Source: an uncultured Phycisphaerales bacterium
GTDB lineage: Bacteria > Planctomycetota > Phycisphaerae > Tepidisphaerales > Tepidisphaeraceae
DNA length: 64,000 nt
Assembly (NCBI GenBank): GCA_963844715.1
Contig: CAWJPJ010000004.1
Location: forward strand, 128,001 to 192,000
Reading direction: 5' to 3'
The position numbers and the translations under genes are program-made. Shown here in pieces: positions 37,972 to 40,875 of the stretch. Each line of letters starts with the position of its first letter. Position 1 is the first letter of the stretch. A model generated the notes under the pieces. It saw nothing but the letters and a program-made list of their open reading frames with translations, did no database searches and had not been told where the DNA came from.

Positions 37972-38020
37972 CTAGATGCTAGAGACCAGTTGCCAGAAGC
38001 TAGAAGCTAGAAGCTAGGAG
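37972..38020. repeat. CTAGNNN heptad tandem repeat (7 units) overlapping the rsmH stop
   Basis: ctagatg ctagaga ccagttg ccagaag ctagaag ctagaag ctaggag. Confidence 0.85.
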
Positions 38021-38924
38021 CATTGCGGCTGGCAACTACGCGCAGTTTTGCCGAACGTGCTCGCGGGTTTTCCGCGATTTCTTCGGGGGTGGGGGAGAGG
38101 GGTTTGCCGGTGATGACCTTAAAAAACCCGGTCTGCTCCAACGACCGAAACGCTTGCTTGACGGCGCGATCTTCCATCGAGTGGAAGCTGATGACGGCGA
38201 ACCGTCCGGCGGAGGCCAAAGCGGCGGGGGCCTGCTTCAAAAGCGACCCCAGGTTCTCCATCTCCCGATTGACGGCCATCCGAAGGGCTAAAAACGTTCG
38301 GGTTGCCGGATCAATCCGCTCCGGAGGACCGCTCCGATGCGGCACAGCCGATCGCACAATTTCGGCCAGTGCGTCAGTGGTAGTGATCGGCGAAGTCTGG
38401 CGCATCTCGACAATCTTTCTGGCAATTCGCCGCGAATAACGCTCCTGTGCCAGTTCATATAGGACCGCGGCGAGATCCTTTTCGGGCAGGCGATTCACCA
38501 AATCCGCGGCGGAGCGCTGGTCCGTCGGGTCGATGCGCATGTCGAGCGGCATGGCGCGGTCGAAGCTCATTCCGTAGTCCGGATCGAAGAGTTGATTGGT
38601 GCTGACTCCCAAATCGGCGAGGATGCCGTTGACCCTGGCGATGCCTGCCTGGGCCAGGACCTCATTCAGTTGTGAAAAATTGGCATGAAAGAGACGGTGC
38701 GGGCAATTGAGCTTCGCCAACCGCTCAGCGGCGAACCGCAGATTGCGCGGATCGGCGTCGAGGCCGATGAGAAGCCCGGTCTTGCCGAGGATTTCGGCGA
38801 TCGCCGCGGCGTGGCCGCCGCGCCCGAGCGTGCAATCGACGAACGTTCCGCCGGGGGTGGGGCGGAGGAGTTCCTGAATCTGGCGAATTAGAACCGGTTC
38901 ATGACCGTGCTCGGGCAGGTCCAT
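38007..38924 (-). CDS. rsmH: 16S rRNA m4C1402 methyltransferase
   Basis: HEPVL, DCTLGRGGH, DLGVS, PLDMR, VISFHSMEDR, NPRARSAKLR. Confidence 0.96.
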   Translation of the reverse strand: MDLPEHGHEPVLIRQIQELLRPTPGGTFVDCTLGRGGHAAAIAEILGKTGLLIGLDADPRNLRFAAERLAKLNCPHRLFHANFSQLNEVLAQAGIARVNGILADLGVSTNQLFDPDYGMSFDRAMPLDMRIDPTDQRSAADLVNRLPEKDLAAVLYELAQERYSRRIARKIVEMRQTSPITTTDALAEIVRSAVPHRSGPPERIDPATRTFLALRMAVNREMENLGSLLKQAPAALASAGRFAVISFHSMEDRAVKQAFRSLEQTGFFKVITGKPLSPTPEEIAENPRARSAKLRVVASRNAPSF

Positions 38925-39025
38925 TCAGGCAGGGTAATCGCAAGGGTGGAAAATACCTCTTGATTTGCGGGCAGGGTAACAGTTACAATGGTTAGGTACT
39001 TGTTCGTAGCGGCAAAATGGCCGAT

Positions 39026-39400
39026 ATAAAGAAAAGGCCGGGCATCCGTGCCCACTGGGTCCCGTCCTTGTTGAGACGCCTCTTCCCGATGCTTTGTCGA
39101 ACGGTCGGTCACGAACTTGGGCCGTCCTTGTGCCGCAAAAGTTCGTGACCGACCGAACGAGTACGCGAAATCGCCAAGTTCACAACCGAGGCCTGGCGAT
39201 TCTTCTTCTCCTCGACGCGGAAAGGGCACCAATCGCCTTCCCAATCATCCTTGAACGGTTGGGCGACTTGGCTGGGTCTGCGCGCGGCATCCATGTCGCG
39301 GCCGACTTACACCGATTCCGATCGATTTTTCTAACCGGCTACTGAAATCTGAAAGACGTGGCCTTCCCTGCGTCTTTCTCCCATTACCACAAACAGTCGG
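39026..39400 (-). ncRNA. Candidate CsrB/RsmZ-like CsrA-sequestering RNA
   Basis: Five CANGGAYG motifs plus CAGGGAAG, mostly in stem-loops; a 17-bp perfect stem; final hairpin followed by a U-rich tract. Confidence 0.7.
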
Positions 39401-39414
39401 AGGTCGCGATCGAC

Positions 39415-39934
39415 CTAATCCGTCTTAACACCCTGTCCCGCTATGATATGTATCGCGGGTGGTTGTTGATTCATTTTTTCCAAAGCCGCGGCTGCCCGCT
39501 CCAAAATTACGGCTCGATTCTTAAGTAAATAATCTCTTCGTTGTTCCCAGGTTTTTCGCGGGATCAACTTTAGATGGTCCTGATTGCCGACCAGCGCCAA
39601 CTCGCCTTTCAGGGACCCATCGGCGGTCACCTCGTCGGGGAGCGTAATGCGCCATTGCGCGTCGAGCTTGACGGGAATGCCGAGGTTGAACTGCGCTTCG
39701 ATGTACTCGGCGATCTCGCGGCTGGGCGGCTGCCTTGGGCGGAACCTGGGCATTCATCATTTCCTTGAAGTATTTCTCTGGAAACAAAAGGATGCCGGGA
39801 TCGTTGGGGACGATCACCAGCGCTCCGCCGGTGATTTCCGGTTCCAGCTGCCGTCGAAAATCCGCTCCAATTGTCACGCGTCGCTTGTCGTCGACCGACA
39901 AAAGCTGACATCCGATGATCGAAGGGGCGTTCAA
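39415..39934 (-). CDS. mraZ: Division/cell-wall cluster regulator MraZ, 1 frameshift near 39740
   Basis: SVDDKRRVTI..FR and VKLDAQWRITLP...LVGNQDHL..W (SpoVT-AbrB repeats); upstream of rsmH. Confidence 0.8.
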
Positions 39935-40152
39935 GGGCAGCTGATCCTTTGCTATGCATTTCCATTCCTATGGATGGGATTTCTATCCAATTTCATCCCC
40001 GCTTTCAAGCGAAAAGACGCTCGTTGTTTAAAAATATTTAACGAGACGCGAATGTAATGGCCGATACGGTGTGTTTTTCTTCAGCTAGTGCGCCGCGCGG
40101 TGGTTTGCACTACCGCTATTGGCGCGCCGCATTGTGGATAACTCAGATTCCC

Positions 40153-40875
40153 CTAATTTGCTACTGTTGAATTCTCCTTTTCGGAGAATTTTTCTTGTGA
40201 TCGCGGAGAGCGCACGGCGAATCGATAGAGAATCGCCGCGATGATGAGAAAGGCCGGCATCCACCATGCGGCAGACGGTGCATTTCCGAGCGCAAAGGAC
40301 AAAGCGCCCATCACCGGCCCGAGCAGCGCGGCCCTGGTCCAATTCATTTTGTCCGATTGCGTTACAAACTCCGCATGCAAATACCAAATGACGGGCCCGC
40401 CGAGGGCGATCGCGACGGCGACGGCGGGAATCAAGCCAGCGAATCGTGTTTTTCCCGCTGCCCATACCCAGATCGCGAGCGTCAAAAGCCAAAGAGAGAC
40501 ATAGGCTTCGGCGAGCACCCATTGCGCGGGTGCCGTGTCGGCGAGGAGTCCGGCGAGCTTCGCCATCGGCCAGCTGGCGGCGATGGCAATGACCACATTT
40601 CGCCGCGAATTCAGGAGTAATGGGGCGAGAAACGCTGCCGCCGCGACCTGAACGACCAGCATGACGGCCAGCGCCGTCTCCTCGGCAGCCGGAGGGTAGC
40701 CCACCGCGAGCGGGACGCGAAAAGCGGATAGAGACAGCGCGCCGGTTTGCACCCCGAGCCAGACTGCTAATGCGACGCCGCTACGCGCGGTTGCCTGACA
40801 TGTGAGATGGTTAACGATACGGGAAGAAACCGCGGCAAGCCACAGCTCATTTCCCAGCGTCGGCTGTGCGCACAT
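40153..40875 (-). CDS. Hypothetical integral membrane protein
   Basis: Multiple hydrophobic helices. Confidence 0.55.
   Translation of the reverse strand: MCAQPTLGNELWLAAVSSRIVNHLTCQATARSGVALAVWLGVQTGALSLSAFRVPLAVGYPPAAEETALAVMLVVQVAAAAFLAPLLLNSRRNVVIAIAASWPMAKLAGLLADTAPAQWVLAEAYVSLWLLTLAIWVWAAGKTRFAGLIPAVAVAIALGGPVIWYLHAEFVTQSDKMNWTRAALLGPVMGALSFALGNAPSAAWWMPAFLIIAAILYRFAVRSPRSQEKFSEKENSTVAN

Follow-up and report, generated by a model that had tools for sequence, protein, structure and literature searches.

Introduction

CsrA recognises GGA-containing hairpin loops, as set out in the available parts of two papers (PMC13443453, PMC7652899), the second of which describes the CsrA binding sites and the sponge action of the CsrB/Rsm RNAs and, in the part at hand, presents Csr-type small RNAs (sRNAs) as well described only in Gammaproteobacteria, other flagellated bacteria being thought to use the protein FliW (PMC7652899). 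CsrA is common in Planctomycetota, according to the accessible part of the first source (PMC13443453). Here we describe a candidate CsrA-binding RNA from this phylum, encoded in a stretch of 64,000 nucleotides (nt; the whole stretch analysed, called the window below) of contig CAWJPJ010000004.1, from an uncultured soil bacterium of the family Tepidisphaeraceae, class Phycisphaerae. On the minus strand, the spacer between mraZ and rsmH is predicted to encode an RNA of ~365 nt (39381-39018) whose GGA hairpins recur behind mraZ in related genera, end in a covarying junction found exactly once in each of 48/61 family genomes and are missing from genomes that lack CsrA; judged by the form of its loops, the RNA probably binds CsrA.

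With their known loop consensus and the known structure of RsmZ, CsrB and CsrC of Enterobacteria and RsmX, RsmY and RsmZ of Pseudomonas and relatives are the closest described systems, and the mraZ-linked RNA shares with them several apical A-N-GGA hairpins, dimer-spaced loop pairs and a cognate CsrA. It differs from them, which are free-standing genes under GacA/UvrY control, in belonging to Planctomycetota and in its fixed place 3′ of mraZ; it has no clear promoter or terminator of its own, contains a conserved four-way junction and occurs alongside FliW. A preliminary description of the locus had proposed a sponge of the CsrB/RsmZ type, of which the multi-site GGA-loop array and the genomic CsrA stand, whereas homology was not found, so that the RNA would be at most an analogue. 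The comparison with Rfam by Infernal that had been suggested there gave no Csr/Rsm family: cmscan on window positions 38500-40200 (E <=10) returned four matches, none of them Csr/Rsm and none the mraW motif, and on six related loci (E <=0.1) three, again none Csr/Rsm. The matches obtained (mir-71, sR44, Guanidine-III, ALIL, MIR6462, P10 and a sub-threshold 6S) were judged irrelevant.

The flaA mRNA of Campylobacter jejuni is a precedent for an mRNA that acts as a CsrA sink. For the hag leader of Bacillus subtilis, a two-site CsrA arrangement is described in the available parts of the two sources (PMC13443453, PMC7652899), and it is mirrored by the two-site flagellin leaders of the present family, which have the same loop type as hag and flaA and often a second GGA hairpin. 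Unlike leaders of the hag, flaA or glgC type, the mraZ-linked RNA carries a larger number of sites, is located behind a gene and does not overlap a start codon; a classical CsrA-repressed leader was rejected on the grounds that the junction ends 52-376 nt before rsmH and that no rsmH follows in 11/28 loci.

CpxQ and SroC, which are 3′-untranslated-region (3′-UTR) or intra-operon RNAs of Proteobacteria, originate from the tail of an mRNA and follow the promoter of the parent gene in their level, as is proposed here. They act through base pairing with Hfq, unlike the mraZ-linked RNA, which looks like a protein-binding array. A conserved structured RNA near mraZ and mraW (= rsmH) likewise exists in the mraW RNA motif of Actinobacteria, said to have been described by Weinberg et al. 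in 2010 and reportedly tied to the 5′ side of mraW; the RNA considered here differs from it in phylum, gives no match to it in Rfam and follows mraZ even where rsmH lies elsewhere. No report of such an RNA in Planctomycetota was found in open-access papers and bioRxiv, which agrees with the earlier statement that no sponge RNA had been described in planctomycetes, and the mraZ-linked RNA would be the first decoy-like RNA candidate in this phylum.

Layout of the Array in the Window

The flanking genes mraZ and rsmH are borne out by Pfam, their reported distance of 490 nt is confirmed, and all six GGA motifs listed in the preliminary description lie where they had been placed, on the minus strand and strand-specific. 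The features of the locus are as follows.

39415-39934, minus strand: mraZ (PF02381, 28.4 bits on the C-terminal half)
39351-39378, minus strand: 5′ hairpin, 8-base-pair (bp) stem GAAAGACG (39378-39371) / CGTCTTTC (39358-39351)
Loop of the 5′ hairpin, minus strand: CAGGGAAGGCCA, with the AGGGAA motif; CAGGGAAG at 39370-39363
39281-39303, minus strand: hairpin with CATGGATG (39295-39288) at its tip
39233-39267, minus strand: hairpin CCCAA...TTGGG with a GTCGCC/GGCGAT extension and CAAGGATG (39253-39246) in the loop
39170-39200, minus strand: hairpin ATCGCCA...TGGCGAT without a GGA motif, in the minimum free energy (MFE) and centroid structures
39102-39155, minus strand: perfect 17-bp stem (39155-39139 / 39118-39102) with a 20-nt loop that holds CAAGGACG (39130-39123)
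39018-39101, minus strand: 3′ junction module (covariance model R1, 37.8 bits, E 2.5e-9)
39087-39078 with 39039-39028, minus strand: outer stem of the junction
39077-39059, minus strand: junction hairpin A, GTCTC-AACAAGGAC-GGGAC, with CAAGGACG at 39070-39063
39053-39040, minus strand: junction hairpin C, GGGCA-CGGA-TGCCC, followed by GGCCTTTTCTTT; holds CACGGATG (39050-39043)
38007-38924, minus strand: rsmH (MraW methylase; PF01795, 313 bits)

Folding of the stretch is more stable than that of its shuffles (z = -3.27) and puts the motifs at hairpin tips; rsmH, whose start lies 93 nt past the end of the RNA module, is outside the element. Within the same genus, the 5′ hairpin region has a blastn match of 91%, and the GGTCGGTCAC...GTGACCGACC arms of the 17-bp stem hairpin recur in loci L007 and L012 (L, G, C and f are our handles for loci, genomes, contigs and families).

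Five exact CANGGAYG matches against fewer than 0.1 expected had been reported, and five are found on the minus strand (39295, 39253, 39130, 39070 and CACGGATG at 39050-39043), where the genome-wide rate (1616 in 9.1 Mb of strand, from a genome of 4.55 Mb) gives an expectation of ~0.045 in 253 nt; CAGGGAAG is a sixth GGA motif but does not match the YG end of the consensus. The window as a whole is not enriched, with 21 matches on both strands vs a shuffle mean of 20.65, but 5/21 fall within 253 nt of one strand. Five matches occur in just one further 400-nt stretch of the genome, a CACGGATG repeat array. The other CANGGAYG clusters were rejected as hairpin arrays, being CACGGATG repeats and copies of an insertion-sequence-like element, the latter accounting for most clusters of three. 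Intergenic arrays of the CACGGATG octamer lie at G000:C7:811326-811359 and G000:C6:321824-322100, none of them in hairpin loops; one has four copies at 11-nt spacing and the other five copies inside a larger duplicated unit. The repeated element is found at 20 listed G000 places (e.g. C8:760561-760827), always with the same three CANGGAYG words over a fixed span of 266 nt, and its copy at C8:760500-760900 reads by eye like a transposase gene, so that it appears insertion-sequence-like, with many copies in the assembly.

A Predicted RNA Behind mraZ in Related Genera

The family was sampled with 61 Tepidisphaeraceae genomes, all of which carry mraZ; one genome (G004, locus L011) is flagged as unpublished, but it contributes a single row and none of the claims rest on it. 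Since nucleotide similarity is weak (blastn of the 401-nt stretch against about 40 relatives gave just three short matches outside its own genome), homology was traced by synteny. Where rsmH was reached, in 20 further loci and in the window, it is separated from mraZ by 353-963 nt. Summed over 32 mraZ-downstream stretches, ANGGA occurs 258 times in sense vs 50 in antisense, and CANGGAYG 73 times vs once. Three features are common to these stretches by eye: a 5′ hairpin whose loop reads CAGGGAAGG, further GGA hairpins inside, and a 3′ module with ...GGCUCUGCYGUAUCG as its end. In related genera, the mraZ stop and the 3′ junction delimit a stretch of 292-794 nt. The GGA loops, whose conservation in orthologous spacers had been named as a check, are thus kept as an array, with 4-10 A-N-GGA motifs per RNA, located in apical loops that are mostly C-G-closed hexaloops.

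The exact CAGGGAAG follows mraZ in 20/28 genera and is apical in 15/20 single-sequence folds. Its hairpin begins 21-189 nt past the mraZ stop, at 21-30 nt in three loci. RNAalifold found no consensus in the alignment of this 5′ hairpin because the stems stand in different registers, and single-sequence folds were used instead, in which at least 4 contiguous pairs adjoin the loop in 7/20 cases vs 36/400 flank-shuffled controls. A conserved open reading frame (ORF) in the family spacers was rejected, as similarity between ORF pieces occurs in all six frames (105 sense and 71 antisense pairs), which is what nucleotide conservation gives and no sign of a conserved protein. Conservation, covariation (see below), strand asymmetry and single-copy synteny hold over about 50 genera, and the GGA cluster is far from chance once relatives are considered; by these comparative measures the DNA after mraZ is predicted to encode a conserved, structured, non-coding RNA.

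Loop Form

The high-affinity CsrA/RsmE site known from SELEX (systematic evolution of ligands by exponential enrichment) and nuclear magnetic resonance work is a C-G-closed ANGGAN hexaloop, and this form dominates the RNAs. In MFE folds of 28 of them, GGA lies in 146/289 small hairpin loops vs 18.75/206 in dinucleotide shuffles, and ANGGA lies in a loop 105 times vs 4.75. With a stem of at least 3 bp required, their 14,330 nt contain 107 ANGGAN hexaloops (7.47 per kb, or 3.8 per RNA), which is a ~33-fold excess over the 0.224 per kb of the window's own genome, while the antisense strands of the same RNAs yield only 2. A C-G pair closes 78/107 (73%) of these hexaloops vs 496/2042 genome-wide, and the N of ANGGAN is unconstrained (C 40, T 27, G 23, A 17). 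A free N, a near-invariant GGA and C-G closure together form a CsrA signature that is not expected of loops that act by base pairing.

The 3′ Junction

Sixteen examples of the 3′ module were aligned, a four-way junction (14-pair outer stem and hairpins A, B and C) was set by hand, because RNAalifold on a MAFFT alignment recovered only 14 pairs, and a covariance model was built. The model matches 28/32 sources at E <1e-6, once each, 12 of them outside the seed; it misses L023 (18.3 bits), L030 (of which only 70 nt were available), L037 and L038. Of the cells, 84.8% are paired, a share that drops to 75.8% after column shuffling and to 38-53% when partners are slid, and both sides have changed in 21/28 pairs, values that 0/500 shuffles reach, in an alignment (A3) that was fitted to the model structure, which favours such counts, and whose sequences are related. 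The outer stem has 90.7% of cells paired over its 14 pairs, 10 of them with double changes. The GGA is retained in loop A in 27/28 rows and in loop C in 28/28, while the base before it varies, and a distance of 20-42 nt (median 33) separates the two GGAs.

Of the 61 Tepidisphaeraceae genomes, 48 have the module, exactly once in each, and a comparison of coordinates places it on the contig and strand of mraZ in 48/48, 0.3-1.2 kb downstream. In a sample of the whole class (see below) it is found in 13/20 Tepidisphaeraceae genomes; its four weak matches in 130 genomes outside the family (E 4.7e-4 to 7.8e-3), none of them beside mraZ, were taken as chance, so that the model is limited to Tepidisphaeraceae.

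The hairpin at 39053-39040 and the T-run behind it had been read as a terminator, and a scan flagged them as terminator-like in the window, but they correspond to hairpin C and the 3′ strand of the conserved outer stem. Relatives have GGCUCUGCYGUAUCG in place of the T-run, and this sequence pairs with the upstream 5′ strand, only the window's genus being T-rich here; being unconserved and paired within the outer stem, the T-run is not clearly a terminator. ARAGORN found no tRNA-like gene in the window stretch and four loci, and by that test the cloverleaf-shaped junction is not tRNA-like.

Co-distribution with CsrA in Phycisphaerae

The class was sampled with 151 genomes, and DNA downstream of mraZ was taken from 52 genomes of 19 further families. 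CsrA is present in 134/151 of these genomes and MraZ in 141/151; CsrA is absent from all 16 genomes of family f3 and from G100 of family f16. A first counter of hairpin sites (GGA, 4 bp, many G-U pairs allowed) proved too loose to tell the groups apart, and it was replaced by a strict count, in which the whole ANGGA must lie in a loop of 5-10 nt and the stem must have at least 4 bp and no more than 1 G-U:

All CsrA-bearing genomes (n=67): mean strict sites 3.19 sense and 0.22 antisense; at least 2 sites in 54/67
CsrA-bearing genomes outside Tepidisphaeraceae (n=36): mean 2.22 sense and 0.17 antisense; at least 2 sites in 25/36
CsrA-less genomes (15 of f3, and G100; n=16): mean 0.25 sense and 0.19 antisense; at least 2 sites in 0/16

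The GC content alone does not explain the pattern, since CsrA-bearing spacers at GC 0.65-0.71 keep the sense excess. In G100 the mraZ-rsmH gap is 5 nt vs 221-223 nt in its two CsrA-bearing family mates. Flagellin genes are kept in 3/4 tested genomes of f3 and FliW in none, so that the missing array tracks the CsrA-FliW module and not flagella. In outgroups with mraZ beside rsmH (Kiritimatiellia, Lentisphaerae, Verrucomicrobia, Elusimicrobia, Myxococcaceae, Bacteroidales), the gaps are 12-95 nt long and have no sites.

CsrA, FliW and Flagellin Leaders

Confirmation of csrA and fliW in the genome had been called for, and both are present. There are two CsrA genes (PF02599, 91.2 and 87.8 bits, cut-off 27), and CsrA is found in 61/61 Tepidisphaeraceae genomes. 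One gene stands directly after FliW and before three flagellin genes, and the other stands alone, beside ORFs that resemble a deaminase and rsmG by eye, without a check against a family library. With FliW adjoining one CsrA, the organism is not a case of an RNA in place of FliW. FliW itself (G000:C5:109536-109887, locus L002 2398-3138) appears as two adjacent frames (model positions 2-59 and 57-122), and a thiG-like ORF also looks frame-broken partway by eye; both breaks may be further single-base indels of the assembly (for mraZ, see the last section).

The flagellin leaders of the family carry ANGGA at most 22 nt from the start codon in 29/29 cases, within a strict hairpin loop in 25/29, typically CAAUC-AUGGAG-GAUUG around the ribosome-binding site, and a further site lies upstream in 15/29. 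The leader hairpins are likely the CsrA sites of a FliW-CsrA-flagellin circuit. Loci L143-L171 and L052 share CAAUC-A(U/C)GGAG-GAUUG, and in many cases another GGA hairpin precedes it by 40-70 nt.

Linkage to mraZ and Transcription

The preliminary description had placed the RNA inside the division and cell wall (dcw) cluster. This part does not hold, for the RNA goes with mraZ, and no rsmH follows, within the sequence available, in 11/28 loci, several of which have their top downstream ORFs on the other strand; some of the downstream ORFs resemble coaB-, panB-, scpA- and aminotransferase-type proteins by eye, without a family search. Conversely, eight rsmH loci without an upstream mraZ, from Tepidisphaeraceae and related Phycisphaerae, have 0-1 sites in the 600 nt before rsmH. 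Where rsmH does follow, its start is never covered: the junction ends 52-376 nt before it (93 nt in the window). The -10 that had been assigned to rsmH was not found by a consensus scan.

The RNA had also been proposed as either a separate sRNA or a product of the mraZ 3′-UTR, and of these the second is favoured: with no promoter visible for the RNA and a 5′ hairpin as near as 21 nt to the mraZ stop, a 3′ tail of the mraZ transcript is likelier than a stand-alone sRNA, and the simplest reading, and the more likely one, would make the RNA the 3′ part of that transcript. A promoter-like site was seen by eye upstream of mraZ:

39980-40008, minus strand: TTGAAA, 17 nt, TAGAAA

The consensus scan accepts only T at position 6 of the -10 and therefore missed this site. 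It is likely the start of a transcript that would comprise mraZ and the RNA. The promoter-like site upstream of mraZ is conserved, and in many genera (loci L010-L039) it is accompanied by GTGGTAGAAA boxes and by GTGGG/GTGGT boxes, which we take to resemble the repeated MraZ operator boxes of other bacteria. The mraZ leader in the window contains ATGGA (39965-39961) and AAGGA (39949-39945, 11-15 nt before the TTG start). In the AAGGA, CsrA might have a site that covers the ribosome-binding site of mraZ; the ATGGA is present in some relatives and absent from others.

Proposed Role and Alternatives

From the loop form, the conserved fold, the linkage to mraZ and the co-distribution with CsrA, we infer that the RNA is transcribed, that it binds CsrA and that its main effect is titration, with strengths that differ by step. 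Binding of CsrA is probable. The fuller reading, in which a multi-site CsrA-binding RNA is the tail of the mraZ transcript and serves mainly as a CsrA sink, is held tentatively, at somewhat below an even chance. The RNA would be co-transcribed with mraZ from the promoter before mraZ, either as a 3′ tail or as the intercistronic part of an mraZ-rsmH transcript; each pair of loops 20-40 nt apart would clamp one CsrA dimer, and the uptake of several dimers would leave less free CsrA for mRNA targets, which would probably include flagellin mRNAs, as these present their ribosome-binding site in loops of the same type. The level of free CsrA would thereby be tied to how active the mraZ promoter is.

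Several observations weigh against the sink. On the side of transcription, no conserved -35/-10 was seen upstream of the 5′ hairpin in 20 aligned loci, the consensus scan found no sigma-70-like site on the minus strand and no conserved terminator, and the sequencing runs that contain the locus include no RNA run, just soil-metagenome DNA contigs. The window hairpins are poor versions of the family form: by our own reading of the sequence only CACGGATG, one of the six, is a clean hexaloop closed by C-G above 3 bp or more, the rest being larger apical loops, and the variable hairpin B of relatives' junctions is absent. Nor does the locus stand out when sites are counted more loosely, as ANGGA in loops of 5-10 nt with a stem of 4 bp or more; the genome then has 23 clusters of at least 4 sites, this one included, and the six others that were examined were mostly coding DNA. 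The sequence of the junction is conserved beyond the GGA loops (CGAUAC...GUAUCG, GAGUCGUCUC), which exceeds what a simple decoy needs and hints at a further function or partner, and its pairing counts benefit from the way in which the alignment was made. As to distribution, no junction match was found in 13/61 family genomes; CsrA-bearing genomes with 0-1 sites occur, one each in f10 and f13, with single-site spacers in f6, f7, f8, f11, f15, f16, f17 and f21; the CsrA-less genomes represent only two independent lineages, relatives not being independent; and the f3 spacers (349-476 nt) are GC-rich and have a strong hairpin and a small ORF instead. Finally, FliW is present and would already serve at least one CsrA as antagonist.

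The alternative that survives best, though we consider it rather unlikely, is a cis-acting platform, on which CsrA bound to the mraZ tail would control that transcript itself (its stability, its processing, mraZ translation or read-through into rsmH and the genes that follow it), titration being incidental. The constant position on the mraZ strand, a 5′ hairpin as near as 21 nt to the stop and the lack of a visible promoter of its own fit such a role, as do the placement between two cistrons where rsmH follows and the ATGGA and AAGGA of the window's mraZ leader, which look like a CsrA site over the ribosome-binding site and of which ATGGA recurs in some relatives. The GGA of the leader is, however, inconsistent across genera, the junction never reaches the rsmH start, and with a downstream gene that is unrelated or on the other strand in 11/28 loci, control of that gene cannot be the conserved role. 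The 4-10 sites also exceed those of cis-acting CsrA targets, which to our knowledge use fewer motifs.

Unlikely, too, is a structured RNA with a different partner or role, such as a scaffold for another RNA-binding protein, an RNA whose GGA loops pair with RNAs that contain UCC, or an element for the processing or stability of the mraZ transcript, the likeness to CsrA sites being coincidental. It would explain why sequence conservation in the junction extends well past the GGA loops, with covariation as in a specific fold, why the loop of the 5′ hairpin is conserved as a 9-mer (CAGGGAAGG), longer than the CsrA core, and why 13/61 family genomes and several CsrA-bearing families have no clear array. 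It does not account for the free N, near-invariant GGA and C-G closure of the loops, for the same loop on the flagellin ribosome-binding site or for the absence of arrays from 16/16 CsrA-less genomes, and no Rfam family or tRNA-like fold fits the RNA.

That the RNA is a stand-alone CsrB/RsmZ-type sRNA gene, furnished with a promoter and a terminator and merely located beside mraZ, was the leading option of the preliminary description, and we now regard this as improbable. The terminator-like hairpin and T-rich run of the window's genus and the up to 189 nt between mraZ stop and 5′ hairpin in some genera, which leave room for a promoter, speak for it; yet no -35/-10 is conserved in the 20 aligned loci and the spacing is 21-30 nt in three, the T-run is unconserved and pairs within the outer stem, Csr/Rsm homology is lacking, and linkage to mraZ on the same strand in 48/48 genomes would be unusual for an independent gene. 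That the array is a functionless chance cluster of GGA words in a long spacer, as the looser count in a single genome might suggest, is extremely improbable given its conservation, covariation, strand asymmetry and single-copy synteny over about 50 genera.

Division without FtsZ is reported for planctomycetes, and in agreement no match to the tubulin/FtsZ family (PF00091) was found in the 85%-complete genome. A more far-reaching possibility, which we consider doubtful, is that in FtsZ-less Phycisphaerae the mraZ tail is a CsrA sponge driven by a cell-division promoter, so that MraZ-controlled transcription would set the level of free CsrA. If so, the division and cell-wall programme would be coupled to global post-transcriptional control, including flagellin synthesis, an RNA antagonist would act alongside FliW and perhaps serve the second, FliW-independent CsrA, and the first family of CsrA-sequestering RNAs outside Proteobacteria would have arisen independently of CsrB/RsmZ. 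The fixed link to mraZ suggests an unexpected tie between a regulator of the division cluster and global RNA control in such a lineage. The candidate bears on CsrA antagonism in Planctomycetota: it is concrete, conserved, easily synthesised and has a covariance-supported fold, and it comes with a natural negative control (a CsrA-less family without the array) and a plausible native CsrA target (the flagellin leader hairpin), by which the question of CsrA sponges outside Proteobacteria becomes directly testable.

Further Observations

The mraZ of the window consists of two overlapping frames (39521-39934 and 39415-39753). The base at 39728, whose absence would join them, is missing in one short-read soil DNA contig (depth 2), and the frameshift near 39728 is for this reason probably an assembly indel and not the mark of a pseudogene. 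Contigs from four soil DNA runs cover parts of the stretch and differ in the RNA part by at most 1-2 letters.

In the f3 gaps (L059-L061, L076-L080 and L101-L107), a very strong hairpin of ~20 bp stands right after mraZ, and in L080 it is followed by a small ORF of ~80 codons; small ORFs also seem to be present towards the 3′ side of the gap in some genomes of f2 and f6, and L057 and L068 were among the loci considered. The sub-threshold match to 6S RNA, with 31.5 bits against a gathering score of 46.4, lies in locus L018 (91-326, plus strand) of a related genus, some 0.9 kb upstream of mraZ.

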